Shown piece by piece: positions 16,533 through 56,245 of a DNA stretch of 64,000 bases. The notes under the pieces are model-generated. The model did no database searches. It was not told where the DNA came from and saw only the letters and a list, made by a program, of their open reading frames with translations. How positions within the stretch are numbered: the stretch's first letter is position 1; every line of letters begins with the position of its first letter. The stretch comes from a virus. The position numbers were made by a program, and so were the translations under genes. The stretch is from positions 51,312 to 115,311 of IMG/VR virus record IMGVR_UViG_3300026534_000102, one strand, 5' to 3'.

Positions 16533-17297
16533 CTAAGCATAATAAACATCAGTATTATAGTTTTCTTCATCTATAACATAAATTCCAGAAGATGTTGCTA
16601 TAAATAAAGTGTTTTTTGTTCCGCCGGCAGAAGTATGAGACGTAACATATAAATCATTTATCTTTAATCCTGTACCTACATTAAAAACTTCACTTGGTTC
16701 AACCCAATCCATAAGAGTAGTATTTAACTTATTTATAGAATATTCCCCGCCCGAGATAGTAATATAATATGCCGTCTCATTATCCGGAACAAAACACTTA
16801 TATGCACCAGAAACAGTTGTTTTACTTCTATACCCATTTGGTTCCATTTGAAAAAAATCTACACCAGAAGAAGTACAACACATTATTTTATCGTTGTAAC
16901 CATGAATATATTTTACATTATCAGACGTGATACGAGGATACCTCAGATAATCCATAAGATAAGCAGTCAAATCTACTGGTGTATTAATGTTTATAGTAAT
17001 ATCATTTTTTGAAAAACATTTAATCCCAGACACAGATGTGGCAACATATACAGTATAATCGTTGCCCCATACAGATTTAAAACCTGAATCAAAATGAATA
17101 TAAGCGCCCTTATGTTCACTATCTATATCTATAATATCGAGACCAGTTCCAATAGCCGCATAAACATAATTAAGATCAGTATAAATTTGATAAAGCGTCG
17201 AAGGGGCAAAATCGTATACTCCCCCACTCCACGTAGTAGGAAAATATCCCGCATCAGAAAAGTTAAATATCCCTCCGCTAATCGTTGGTATTGACAT
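16533..17297 (-). CDS. Putative virion protein, beta-propeller-like
   Basis: Repeated YAAIGTGLDII / YVATSVSGIKCF / MCCTSSGVDFF / FIATSSGIYVI blades. Confidence 0.6.
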   Translation of the reverse strand: MSIPTISGGIFNFSDAGYFPTTWSGGVYDFAPSTLYQIYTDLNYVYAAIGTGLDIIDIDSEHKGAYIHFDSGFKSVWGNDYTVYVATSVSGIKCFSKNDITININTPVDLTAYLMDYLRYPRITSDNVKYIHGYNDKIMCCTSSGVDFFQMEPNGYRSKTTVSGAYKCFVPDNETAYYITISGGEYSINKLNTTLMDWVEPSEVFNVGTGLKINDLYVTSHTSAGGTKNTLFIATSSGIYVIDEENYNTDVYYA

Positions 17298-17300
17298 AAT

Positions 17301-19484
17301 TTAAGTCCCTGGCTTTATTTTATCAGACGCTATAATATTATAAGAATCAGTAATTTCTGGAAGAATAACTGAAAAATGATACTCATCATATTCAGAAATA
17401 ATTTCAAAATACCCATTGCCGCTGGCAGATGTGGTACTTCCAATAAGTTCCCCTGTGTCTCTTTTATATAGGTGCACCGGTCTAGCTACTGGAACCCCGC
17501 CTTTTTGTACATATCCTGTGTACTTAAATTGGGGTGGATAAAAAGTAACTAAATTATCCCAGTTCGAATAATAAGTAGCTTTAATCCAATCGGCTGATCT
17601 TGCTATTTTTGAAACTCTTACTTCATCTATAATTCCATTAAAAAAATCACTAGTAGACGCATCATACTCTTGACCAATACTTGCTCGTCCATTGGATTCT
17701 ATAACAAAATTTGATGATGCTGTTCCAGTTTGATCTTGAACCCCATCAATATACGAGGTAAAATTTTTATTTGCAGCATTATAAACTAAATCCACAATGT
17801 GCCAATTATCATCGCAGACATTTTTTGTGCTTGTTAAACGTATAATTTCTGTAGCTGATGTGTTTAATAAAATAAAACTAAAATAATTATGATTTGGTTC
17901 AATCCAAAAAATAGCTCTATTAGAATTTCCTGTTACTCCGTGCATACTTAAAACAGTATCGCTATCACTCGATGGTAAAGTAGTTCCATGTTTAATTGCA
18001 AAAGTCGATGTAAAATAATTTCCATTTGAATTAATATCAGAGCAAATCCCATTTATTTCAGTATAATCATCATTGCCATCAAAATCTAAAGCTTTTCCAA
18101 TTTTGCCATCTACTAAGTCAGACGCGGTCATGTTTCCATGTGGGGTACCATTATTTTGATTAGAAGTGGAATCTAAAATACACCCTGTGCCGCCAGTTGG
18201 TTCTTGAGACATATGCCAAACTCCTACGAAATTGTCATCCCAAACTCTATTTGCAACATTCTTAGTCCAAACTTTTCCGTCTTCTGACGTGGCATAAAGT
18301 ATTCTATCCTTCGACCCATTATAACCCGCATACCATATTTTATATAAATTGTTGGATTCTTTTATTACAAATGGCACATGTGCTCGGGATGTATCATATG
18401 TACCTTCACTGTTTTTATTAATCACTAATTGAAAATTAGACCAGCTTATACCATCAGTAGAAGTAGCATATATTATTCTATGACTTGATCCATCATATCC
18501 AGTATACCATATTTTATAAGAAACACTAGATTCCTTAATTACAGATGGTTTAAAAGCATATTGAGTATCATACGTCCCCTCACTTCCTATGTTAATTGAT
18601 CTTTGAAAATTAGACCAACTTGTACCATTGGTAGAGGTAGCATAGATGATTCTAATATAAGCACCATCTGAACCACCATACCATATTTTATACGATGTAT
18701 CTGATTCCTTTATTACAGACAGTGAATAAATACTAGCAGTGTCATAAGTTCCCTCACTTCCAGTATTTATTACTCTTTGAAAATTGGACCAGTTTGTACC
18801 ATCAGTAGAGGTAGCATATAATACGGTTTCTTTATTTGATGAATTTCTTCCACCGTACCACATTTTGTACAAGGTATTCGACTCCTTTACAACACTTGGA
18901 TATCTAGCACCATTTGCATCATGAGTACCCTCACTGCCCTTATCAATAACAAGCTGGAAATTAGACCAAGTTTTACCATCATTGGAAGTACAATATAAAA
19001 TTCTCCAAGTTGTACCATCATAACCAGTATACCACATTTTATATGAAGTATCACTTTCTTTTATAACACAACCACCATAAGCCTTTGAGGTATCATATGT
19101 TCCTTCACTATTAACGTTTATTGATAACTTAATAGCTTTTTCACTCGCTATCCCTACAAACTCTCTATTAGATGGTTTAGTACTATCATAATACAAAGAA
19201 AGAGATTTATCCTGGCCCGCGAACAAAGACGGAACTCTTACCCATAACTGGGCGGTTTTATGAGTCGAATCCCAGTTTTCAATTTCTATAGGAAGTTGTA
19301 CTCCATATTCATCTTCAATTTTAATCTTATAAGATTCATTTCCAAGTTCATCAAAAATAAGTGATAAATCAGCATCAGAGATCCCACTTGAATTAGACAA
19401 GTTCAATAGCACTGGGAAATTAGTTAAATTACTACCTATTTTTGAACCATCTATTAAGATAGTTATTTTATTACTCCAACTCAT
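17301..19484 (-). CDS. Putative receptor-binding protein: DUF2341-like + 5-blade propeller + LamG + C-terminal Ig/transthyretin-like domain
   Basis: LTNFPVLL...LPIEIENWD...QLWVRVP...LYY; five ~58-aa repeats; VWDDNFVGVWHM...GKIGKALDFDG...FNGIIDEVRVSKIARSADWI. Confidence 0.75.
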   Translation of the reverse strand: MSWSNKITILIDGSKIGSNLTNFPVLLNLSNSSGISDADLSLIFDELGNESYKIKIEDEYGVQLPIEIENWDSTHKTAQLWVRVPSLFAGQDKSLSLYYDSTKPSNREFVGIASEKAIKLSINVNSEGTYDTSKAYGGCVIKESDTSYKMWYTGYDGTTWRILYCTSNDGKTWSNFQLVIDKGSEGTHDANGARYPSVVKESNTLYKMWYGGRNSSNKETVLYATSTDGTNWSNFQRVINTGSEGTYDTASIYSLSVIKESDTSYKIWYGGSDGAYIRIIYATSTNGTSWSNFQRSINIGSEGTYDTQYAFKPSVIKESSVSYKIWYTGYDGSSHRIIYATSTDGISWSNFQLVINKNSEGTYDTSRAHVPFVIKESNNLYKIWYAGYNGSKDRILYATSEDGKVWTKNVANRVWDDNFVGVWHMSQEPTGGTGCILDSTSNQNNGTPHGNMTASDLVDGKIGKALDFDGNDDYTEINGICSDINSNGNYFTSTFAIKHGTTLPSSDSDTVLSMHGVTGNSNRAIFWIEPNHNYFSFILLNTSATEIIRLTSTKNVCDDNWHIVDLVYNAANKNFTSYIDGVQDQTGTASSNFVIESNGRASIGQEYDASTSDFFNGIIDEVRVSKIARSADWIKATYYSNWDNLVTFYPPQFKYTGYVQKGGVPVARPVHLYKRDTGELIGSTTSASGNGYFEIISEYDEYHFSVILPEITDSYNIIASDKIKPGT
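18258..19109 (-). repeat. Five tandem ~174-nt (58-aa) coding repeats
   Basis: SEGT(Y/H)D...V(I/V)KES...YK(M/I)WY.G...(I/V)(L/I)Y(A/C)TS.(D/N)G..W, five copies. Confidence 0.95.
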
Positions 19485-19494
19485 GTTATTTCTC

Positions 19495-54772: not shown

Positions 54773-54787
54773 AATTATTTTTTACTC

Positions 54788-55771
54788 TTATGTAGTACTA
54801 TAATCTATTTGATTAACCATTGTTTTTATACCTAATCTAGCCAATTGATCAATATTAGTATACCACATACTTGGTCCATTATTAGGATCTTGCTCTCTCA
54901 AAATTTGAATACGGGTGCCCGACACAGTATAGCTGTGTTTAATTCCTACATAATTATTAGCAGCATTTGTAGGAACAATAATTTGTAAATCATTTGTACC
55001 AGCCAAAGCGGTAAAATAATCCGTATTAACTCCATCAGTAATCATTAAACAATCGCCTTCACCTACCCCAGATCCACCAACTATTGATAACGTACTTGTA
55101 TCAGTGGTGTAATTAGCTGTTAACTTTGTTTCATTTACAGTTATATTAGCCAAAGATTCACTATCTATCGGAGTATCAAACCCTAACACTGCCGTTGCAT
55201 CCATAGTATCTGCAGGAGATACTTTAACAGAGCTTCTATATGGACCAGTGTAATATTTACCTACACTTCCAGAAACAATCCAAAAACGACCCTCTTTAAA
55301 ATAGACGGATGTATTAACATATGATAATTTAAATCCAGCATCTCCTACATTTAAATTATCTCCTATCGCGCGAATTTTTGTTTCCATATCGTCTGCGATA
55401 GCTTCTCCAGAAATTTTGGTTCCATCATTATTATAGGCTAAATCAATGGTATACCATCCGGAACCATCTGATCCGCTGATAGTAGCATCTATTTTTACTT
55501 TCATTTTATAATGACTTGAATCTAAGGCAAACTTCCCACCTACTCCTCCGAAACCAGAGCTTTTACACCAACCAGCCTTAAAATCCATTATTTGTAAGTC
55601 CTGAATGGCGGTTCTGTTTACGTTATCACTATATGCTGTAGTTGAAGCCACCATTAAAAACTGCTCGTCTCCTTCGAATCCGACGGGCACCAAACTACTT
55701 AAATCCACAGTAACCCTTTGTGTATTACCAGGATAATGCTCCAAATCCTGGGTATTAATATTTAATGCCAT
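54788..55771 (-). CDS. Putative virion structural protein
   Basis: Contains the shared GxxIAxD...FxxxSG...LGF domain; GGAGGAG RBS. Confidence 0.6.
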   Translation of the reverse strand: MALNINTQDLEHYPGNTQRVTVDLSSLVPVGFEGDEQFLMVASTTAYSDNVNRTAIQDLQIMDFKAGWCKSSGFGGVGGKFALDSSHYKMKVKIDATISGSDGSGWYTIDLAYNNDGTKISGEAIADDMETKIRAIGDNLNVGDAGFKLSYVNTSVYFKEGRFWIVSGSVGKYYTGPYRSSVKVSPADTMDATAVLGFDTPIDSESLANITVNETKLTANYTTDTSTLSIVGGSGVGEGDCLMITDGVNTDYFTALAGTNDLQIIVPTNAANNYVGIKHSYTVSGTRIQILREQDPNNGPSMWYTNIDQLARLGIKTMVNQIDYSTT

Positions 55772-55795
55772 AATTTTGCTCCTCCTAATAAATTT

Positions 55796-56245
55796 CTATG
55801 CGTAAAAATAATGTGTGCCATGAGCCAAATAATAAGGACACCCAGAATAAGTACATTCATAACCCCAAACACCTCTTCTAGTTGGTCTCATAAACACTTC
55901 TTTATTAATAGTACCACTGCCCACTGGCACTGTAACACTGTGGTCAACTAAACTGGGCAACGTGTCGTTTGGACCTAAACCTAACATAGTTCTTATTCTA
56001 TCATACCTATCTACTGGACCAAATGTGGCTTCATATTCCTGAATAGTAGTTCCATAATAAACAGGCCAATTTGTAAAATCTAAAACAGCTTGTGTAGAAT
56101 AGGGGCATGGCATCCATTTGTTGCCTTTATGTTTGGACTTTTTATATTGTGGCAAGTTGCCTGTTGCAGAAGTTCCATAAAACTCCTCCCAGGTCATTCC
56201 GCAAGGATCTTCTTTGCAGTGTGTGTATCTACCACCTTTACCCAT
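55796..56245 (-). CDS. Cys/His-containing hypothetical protein
   Basis: HCKEDPC, PCPY, ECTYSGCPYY...H. Confidence 0.65.
   Translation of the reverse strand: MGKGGRYTHCKEDPCGMTWEEFYGTSATGNLPQYKKSKHKGNKWMPCPYSTQAVLDFTNWPVYYGTTIQEYEATFGPVDRYDRIRTMLGLGPNDTLPSLVDHSVTVPVGSGTINKEVFMRPTRRGVWGYECTYSGCPYYLAHGTHYFYA

Follow-up and report, generated by a model that had tools for sequence, protein, structure and literature searches.

The locus and its setting

The DNA considered here is a window of 64,000 nucleotides at the right-hand end of a viral contig of 115,311 bases (IMG/VR record IMGVR_UViG_3300026534_000102, hereafter G000), and the element in question is the short protein motif T-x-S-G (TxSG), which recurs through the large proteins encoded between positions 16,533 and 56,245. 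CheckV rates the record as 44% complete, and a contig of this length at that completeness probably belongs to a phage of the jumbo type. All genes in the window lie on the minus strand. Positions 1 to 16,500 hold replication and nucleotide genes, including PD-(D/E)XK nucleases, DnaJ, radical SAM, Toprim primase, DnaB, RecA and clamp proteins. Positions 16,533 to 56,245 encode large proteins for which Pfam and PHROG matches are nearly nil, the exceptions being lectin-type and immunoglobulin (Ig)-like domains (Laminin_G_3, DUF2341, F5/8 type C and Big_1). No cultured phage was found with similarity to G000 at either the DNA or the protein level. The comparisons below draw on nine related records, all of them fragments, which together with G000 give 10 records of 20–72% completeness, and on five unrelated control phages (T4, T5, crAss001, phiKZ and P-SSM2). 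Expected motif counts allow for composition protein by protein. The two principal carriers of the motif are:

16533..17297, minus strand: 254-residue five-bladed β-propeller with six TxSG (AF2 model, pLDDT 84.6, pTM 0.81; Foldseek)
19495..22902, minus strand: 1135-residue tail- or baseplate-type protein with seven TxSG (AF2 model, pLDDT 90.4, pTM 0.83)

Excess of TxSG in the structural proteins

The first-pass annotation of the window, made from the sequence alone, had counted by hand about 30 TxSG motifs in some 13,000 residues and proposed that they form a dispersed O-glycosylation sequon. The exact count between 16533 and 56245 is 30 in 13,123 residues, against 6.8 expected, and the excess survives the shuffling that the annotation had suggested, done for each protein separately, with 31 motifs in all 48 open reading frames (ORFs) of the window where 9.3 would be expected. 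Its more local counts hold as well: six motifs fall in the 254-residue propeller (0.2 expected) and seven in the 1135-residue protein (0.93 expected), the terminal copies MSIPTISGG and PTTISGL-stop are both present, the single motif of positions 1–13954 is a THSG in the gene at 6647–7390, and the 1793-residue (37431–42812) and 938-residue (49121–51937) proteins, which had been described as tape-measure or hub-like, contain none.

When all 8,000 motifs of the form a.bc were scanned over the structural block, TxSG ranked first (p = 5.5e-11), and SGT, TxxSG and TTxS were raised in the same unbiased scan, giving an extended word T-T-x-S-G-T. Removal of the propeller and 1135-residue families leaves 17 TxSG against 5.7 expected (p = 9e-5, or p = 2e-3 when tested against the outside baseline). 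Proteins that are not part of the virion show no clear avoidance of the motif, with 2 against 5.0 expected in G000 (p = 0.12; with the outside baseline as reference, p = 0.04) and 9 against 7.3 in the relatives. The serine codons inside TxSG belong to both the TCN and the AGY families at background frequencies, so that selection acts at the level of the protein and a DNA-level word is ruled out as the cause of the excess. The threonine codon of the motif is ACT in 23 of 30 cases, where the proteins concerned use it at 49% overall (p = 0.002, binomial), a bias not shared by the serine and glycine codons.

The observed-to-expected ratio (O/E) of TxSG is 4.6× in the virion-type proteins of G000 and 5.6× in the loci of the relatives (227 against 40.4), while in the five control phages it is 0.9–1.4 overall, or about 1.3× taken together. 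Restricting the comparison to proteins rich in T, S and G gives 0.5–1.6 in the control phages against 4.9 in G000, which rules out a generic property of β-rich tail proteins. The motif is also strict in its residues: TxTG, TxNG, DxSG, NxSG and SxTG stay near 1× in all three sets compared, and in G000 only, TxDG, TxAG and TxSA reach about 1.9× and SxSG 2.2×. The excess is thus real and lineage-specific. That it might instead be a chance or compositional artefact has to be considered because the motif was picked after the sequence had been read and T, S and G abound in its carriers; the first rank among 8,000 motifs with composition accounted for in each protein, the reproduction in independent relatives and the absence from the control phages refute this explanation, to which we attach hardly any credence.

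A blade signature in a propeller family

The model of the 254-residue protein has 20 strands arranged as five four-stranded blades, and Foldseek returns hundreds of propeller matches, among them WD40, YVTN, BtuG and Reg_prop propellers at E of about 1e-7. Four of its motifs (T142SSG, T161VSG, T180ISG and T235SSG) and the variant T87SVSG lie exactly at the turn between consecutive strands. The motif or its variant occurs at loops 2, 6, 10, 14 and 18, with a further copy at loop 12, so that in the model all of the blade-turn motifs occupy even-numbered loops and lie on one face of the propeller, one per blade. The remaining two copies, PTISGG and PTTWSGG, are in an N-terminal tail modelled with low confidence.

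Of 20 homologues, 16–18 retain the motif, and at two of the blades its T and G never vary; a profile search extends the family to 425 representatives. Among the best 148 of these 425, which share less than 50% mutual identity, TxSG is enriched 10–18×, each protein having 3–5 copies, and the sequence around it reads h-h-[AT]-T-x-S-G-[VI]-x-[VI]-[IY]-D. Cellular occurrence of the family is limited to two short contigs from metagenome-assembled genomes among 185,579 prokaryote genomes. No Pfam or PHROG family matches the 254-residue propeller, and a search for solved structures related by sequence gave only spurious designed repeats. TxSG is therefore the blade signature of a propeller family that is seen almost only in phage and metagenome contigs.

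A paralogue of this protein lies outside the window at G000:41220-42815 (L001:3221-4816), where it combines a propeller with DUF2341 in 531 residues and carries two TxSG. It sits far from the tail genes, between a cluster of sugar-modifying genes described below and the clamp loader. It is retained in enlarged form next to this cluster in the relative G001 and is missing in the relative G007, so that a conserved link between the cluster and the propeller paralogue is not upheld.

Hairpin turns in the 1135-residue modular protein

The 1135-residue protein is modelled as three tandem modules of about 350 residues, made of β-sandwiches, followed by a C-terminal domain. Foldseek relates its domains to the C-terminal domain of PCSK9 and to APC-beta and, weakly, to the baseplates of the phages phi812, phiKZ and A4. 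Hairpin turns account for five of the seven motifs, of which those at residues 312 and 493 are two-residue hairpins and those at 366, 1023 and 1101 are in hairpin loops of 4–5 residues; the motif at residue 20 begins a strand after a loop, and that at 1131 is in the C-terminal tail. Mapping of the motifs onto models, a check that the first-pass annotation had proposed, thus places 11 of the 13 copies that these two proteins have between them on or next to short loops joining consecutive strands, and TxSG is found on 10 of the 56 short inter-strand loops of both models together.

Across the 40 members of the 1135-residue family there are 200 TxSG against 37.8 expected. About 17 semi-conserved columns hold 147 of these, and the other 53 are near the number expected by chance, from which it follows that the motif is not turning over freely; the free positional turnover that characterises N-glycan shields is not seen in this family. 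A full-length paralogue with four TxSG is encoded at G000:15209-18754, and the C-terminal domain is common to the 1135-residue protein and its 727-residue neighbour (17301..19484). The annotation had argued that homology does not explain the motif because its carriers are largely unrelated folds. This part of the proposal is not confirmed, as a good part of the occurrences can be put down to the repeats of the propeller blades, the three modules in tandem, the C-terminal domain that two proteins have in common and a pair of paralogues elsewhere in the genome.

Comparison of paralogous modules shows that equivalent hairpins hold SSSSQ, TTSSG or KDDHT at one position and TYSG, EYDE or PYGE at another, EYDE being the form that replaces TYSG in the C-terminal domain of the 727-residue protein. 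The folds consequently tolerate alternatives, and TxSG is not required at these turns. A second loop signature repeated in the 1135-residue protein is the N-N-S-T-S type, seen at corresponding hairpins in the three modules (residues 261–265, 613–617, 941–946 and 974–978).

Fibre repeats of the relatives

The highest counts of TxSG are found in the variable fibre genes of the relatives, where 21 copies stand against 1.5 expected, 22 against 2.8, 20 against 2.4 and 13 against 1.1. These extreme values arise because two conserved and previously undescribed repeats carry two TxSG each; the majority of the relatives' copies fall within such longer fibre repeats. The first repeat reads L.L.DTP.TYSG.EGQ...ST.SG[IV]EF and the second VPWDFG.GTISGTGDIYCND..TASGTVYIGD; together they build giant fibres at L013:13635-17882, L009:10-9225, L005:2411-9547 and L004:93-2609, in which Laminin_G_3, F5/8 type C and C1q/BclA_C domains are scattered among them. 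Neither a Pfam family nor a relative in the PDB was found for the two repeats, and neither repeat occurs within the window.

Two controls show how such statistics arise. In a more distant relative (L015) the blade signature of RCC1 propellers (WxWG/GQLG) is similarly extreme, with 29 WxWG against 1.1 expected (p = 2e-31), and in P-SSM2 the collagen-like PxGP reaches p = 2e-66. When a short motif of phage structural proteins reaches values as extreme as these, it is normally a sign of repeat architecture. TxSG behaves like the RCC1 signature and PxGP both in the propeller family and in the fibre repeats, and a structural hairpin signature is therefore its most economical reading. In L015:7853-20438 the fibres are replaced by three proteins of about 1,300–1,500 residues that are full of the RCC1 signature (WxWG, GQLG).

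The distribution of the motif has also to be weighed against a role in recognition of another kind, in which the TxSG loops bind host polysaccharide, serve as peptides (PT(T)xSG) for docking of tail subunits, or are the site of some other modification. The placement of all propeller turns on one face, one per blade, would suit such a surface, as would the lectin-type domains of the neighbouring proteins and of the relatives' fibres (Laminin_G_3, F5/8 type C, C1q/BclA_C and DUF2341) and the four PT(T)xSG peptides, three of which are at or near protein termini and whose core is common to the fibre repeats of the relatives. The variety of folds and positions, however, makes a common binding role unlikely, and the one-face layout follows from blade periodicity alone. 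We therefore consider a recognition surface rather improbable.

TxSG as a probable structural turn signature

The explanation that we favour, and consider somewhat better than even, is that TxSG is a lineage-specific structural signature of β-hairpin turns. The results above show that the motif sits at turns, that it is conserved, that it is a signature of a whole family and that it is specific to one lineage; we infer that it is there for the sake of folding or stability and not in order to be recognised by an enzyme. The threonine would close one strand, x-Ser would form the tight turn and the glycine would open the next strand, so that TxSG would nucleate or stabilise hairpins in the manner of the Asp-box and of the blade signatures of WD40 and RCC1 propellers, with no modification needed. 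On this view a small set of repeat modules based on hairpins, namely propeller blades, tandem β-sandwiches and, in the relatives, the two fibre repeats, may make up the proteins of tail, fibre and baseplate in this jumbo-type clade of uncultured phages. These modules would have been duplicated and shuffled among the tail genes with the turn motif travelling along, a course of events supported by the paralogues and shared domains that carry TxSG.

The Asp-box (S-x-D-x-G-x-T-W) is a β-hairpin motif of sialidase-type propellers and other β folds. TxSG resembles it in being short and specific in sequence, in lying at a tight hairpin that joins consecutive strands and in occurring once per blade and also in unrelated β folds, with a turn capped by small polar residues and followed by glycine. 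It differs in sequence and spacing, has neither the aspartate nor an obligatory aromatic residue, and is limited to one uncultured phage clade, its turn geometry being taken from AlphaFold models. The Asp-box consensus is absent and DxSG and TxDG are not clearly enriched, while the hairpin location is found in both the propeller and the β-sandwiches; TxSG is accordingly an analogue of the Asp-box and not a member of that class. It also shares with the WD40, Kelch, RCC1 (WGxNxxGQLG) and Reg_prop families the family-wide use of one turn motif per blade and the extreme short-motif statistics, occurring once per blade at an equivalent inter-strand turn and being conserved beyond close relatives. 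The difference from these families is that TxSG is also found outside propellers in the same phages and that no Pfam or PHROG family matches.

Several observations weigh against a purely structural role. The 17 motifs against 5.7 expected persist once the two best-explained families have been removed, and TxSG occurs in at least two unrelated folds as well as in terminal tails for which no hairpin is modelled. Its excess is not generic to β-rich tail proteins, as the control phages show, its residue strictness exceeds ordinary turn propensities, and paralogous modules accommodate other sequences at the same hairpins. Finally, the same genome encodes a large soluble glycan cluster.

Should the structural explanation be correct, the window would contribute a propeller family that is new, its 425 representatives being nearly confined to phage and metagenome contigs, together with a compact hairpin-turn signature that is reused across several tail-protein architectures of an uncultured clade. 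Both would be useful for annotating and modelling tail proteins that otherwise cannot be annotated. There is also a caution here, in that a short motif rich in S, T and G for which tail proteins show an excess can be a repeat signature, as with RCC1 in L015.

Glycosyltransferases and the sugar cluster

The first-pass annotation had noted two glycosyltransferases (GTs) in the window and made them the enzymes of its proposed system. Both are genuine GT4 genes by Pfam and are located as follows:

1..3955, minus strand: GT4 with a LAGLIDADG intein, thymidylate-synthase (TS) homologue and second GT4 (Pfam)

The intein-bearing GT4 occupies positions 1–1878 and runs past the start of the window to G000:50949, with Pfam matches to LAGLIDADG_3 and Intein_splicing; a GT4 is an unusual host protein for an intein. 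The TS match at 1878–2675 is flanked by the two GT4 genes, and the three are packed closely together where the replication module ends. For the second GT4 there is, in addition, a borderline match to the GT4-conflict family (26.2 bits, with a cut-off of 26).

These genes belong to a soluble glycan cluster of about 12.5 kb (G000:42819-55266), of which the part at 42819–51311 (locus L001) is directly upstream of the window. The cluster encodes three GT2, two GT4, a DegT aminotransferase, three hexapeptide (LbH) acyltransferases, a GFO/IDH/MocA oxidoreductase, a methyltransferase, a sulfotransferase and a HAD/KdsC-like hydrolase, and its trio of oxidoreductase, aminotransferase and acetyltransferase resembles the WbpB/E/D route to diacetamido sugars. 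None of its proteins has a hydrophobic segment of transmembrane strength, and a membrane protein, flippase or polymerase is absent from the cluster. A soluble pathway that lacks lipid-carrier machinery suggests a soluble acceptor, which may be virion protein or DNA, and the position of the TS homologue between two GT4s favours DNA as the target of at least those two. On gene order and family assignment, the GT4 pair flanking TS in the replication module appears to fit DNA modification at least as well as virion glycosylation, and glycosylated hydroxymethyl-pyrimidine DNA is a possible product of the GT4–TS–GT4 genes. The arrangement recalls the T4-type glucosylation of hydroxymethylcytosine (hmC), in that a TS-family gene lies directly between two GT-B glycosyltransferases in a replication and nucleotide module, and differs from it in that the cluster adds an aminotransferase, acyl-, methyl- and sulfotransferases and three GT2s, which go beyond the known needs of DNA glycosylation.

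The alternative closest to the original proposal is that TxSG is a sequon for cytoplasmic O-glycosylation of the tail proteins by this soluble cluster, the hairpin being both a structural and a recognition element. Precedent is given by the autotransporter O-heptosyltransferases Aah/TibC (BAHT family), which O-glycosylate serines of β-rich adhesins in the cytoplasm and recognise strand-loop-strand elements, with the modified residue where the loop begins (PMC3835316). In the models the serine of TxSG likewise lies in strand-loop-strand elements close to where the loop begins. Aah, however, has no sequence consensus whereas TxSG is strict in sequence, and no match to a GT9-type heptosyltransferase (PF01075) was found in G000, itself 44% complete. 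A GT41 of the OGT/HMW1C kind is likewise wanting in this record, where the only match is a sub-threshold one of 10.5 bits inside a GT4 gene. A second precedent comes from the mycobacteriophages Che8, Corndog and Myrna, in which phage-encoded GTs are reported to modify the phage's own virion proteins (Freeman et al. 2023, as summarised in PMC12363180). Phage-encoded GTs are also present in G000 (three GT2 and two GT4); in the mycobacteriophages the reported targets are the capsid and coat proteins and the GTs are few, whereas here the candidate carriers are tail proteins, and the GTs form part of a 12.5-kb cluster for building sugars that lies in the replication module.

Further points speak for a sequon. 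The motif is confined to tail-type proteins of one lineage, is strict in T, S and G, and has its propeller copies on one side; it occurs in unrelated folds and terminal tails, and other sequences are tolerated at equivalent turns. Five GTs and several sugar-modifying enzymes, none with a predicted membrane segment, are at hand, and the TxSG-enriched relatives G001 and G007 possess orthologous DegT and HAD genes. Set against these, no result ties the GTs to TxSG, either chemically or genetically. TxSG is a family blade signature and is embedded in longer conserved repeats, its excess comes from semi-conserved positions and not from turnover, cytoplasmic phage proteins show no clear avoidance, and the 727-, 1793- and 938-residue proteins, all large, outer and rich in T, S and G, lack it. 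The cluster itself is situated within the replication module, and one of its genes is the TS homologue. Covariation of GTs with the motif offers no contrast, as GT2, GT4 or DegT genes are present in nearly all of the relatives; a GT2 match was found in 8 of the 10 records including G000 (7 of the 9 relatives). G003, the one long record without such matches, has a contig that stops about 2.5 kb past the tail gene and the cluster is usually about 20 kb further on, and G009 has GTs that are unrelated to the glycan cluster and shows no TxSG excess.

On balance we regard a sequon as a minority explanation, though one to be taken seriously; it would be the first sequence-defined acceptor for phage tail glycosylation. 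A more explicit version would make the TxSG hairpins the acceptors of an entirely cytoplasmic multi-enzyme phage pathway, comprising the five GTs, a WbpB/E/D-like diacetamido-sugar route and the methyl- and sulfotransferases, that coats the fibre, baseplate and propeller proteins of this jumbo-type clade. As a joint claim this is somewhat less probable again. If true, it would represent the first defined O-glycosylation sequon on phage tails, in the form of a sequence-specific strand-loop-strand element.

Other carriers and neighbouring genes

The remaining large genes of the structural block, read here as turn-signature carriers or their neighbours, are as follows:

17301..19484, minus strand: 727-residue DUF2341 and Laminin_G_3 protein, zero TxSG (0.68 expected)
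22906..24990, minus strand: 694-residue DUF2341 protein, one TxSG
24991..28023, minus strand: 1010-residue protein, four TxSG (0.56 expected), with a weak sub-threshold Pfam match to SGL (propeller)
28029..37025, minus strand: 2998-residue lectin-like protein with Laminin_G_3 and F5/8 type C domains, three TxSG (1.15 expected, not significant alone)
37431..42812, minus strand: 1793-residue protein, zero TxSG
43282..47944, minus strand: three adjacent proteins of about 510 residues without known family, with two, two and one TxSG
48431..49108, minus strand: 225-residue protein without family match, one TxSG (TVSG; 0.18 expected)
49121..51937, minus strand: 938-residue protein, zero TxSG
54788..56245, minus strand: 327- and 149-residue proteins, two and one TxSG

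Two of the four motifs in the 1010-residue protein form the tandem TYSGIDTTYSG. The three proteins of about 510 residues and the 225-residue protein are part of the residual excess that remains after the propeller and 1135-residue families have been set aside. An Atlas search with the 327-residue protein gave only weak leads. The 727-residue protein, rich in T, S and G and yet without TxSG, is a counter-example within the same module.

Four peptides of the form P-T-(T)-x-S-G occur in the window (17240–17288, 19518 and 46232). The N-terminal tail of the propeller has two of them in tandem, a third closes the 1135-residue protein at its extreme C-terminus, and the fourth is internal, at residue 65 of the protein encoded at 44835–46421. 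Their core is also the core of the relatives' DTP fibre repeat, and it is a possibility that they act as docking or strand-exchange peptides.

At 49121–53175 the 938-residue protein and a 407-residue protein are paralogues (25% identity over about 400 residues) with Big_1/invasin-type Ig domains, and neither carries TxSG.

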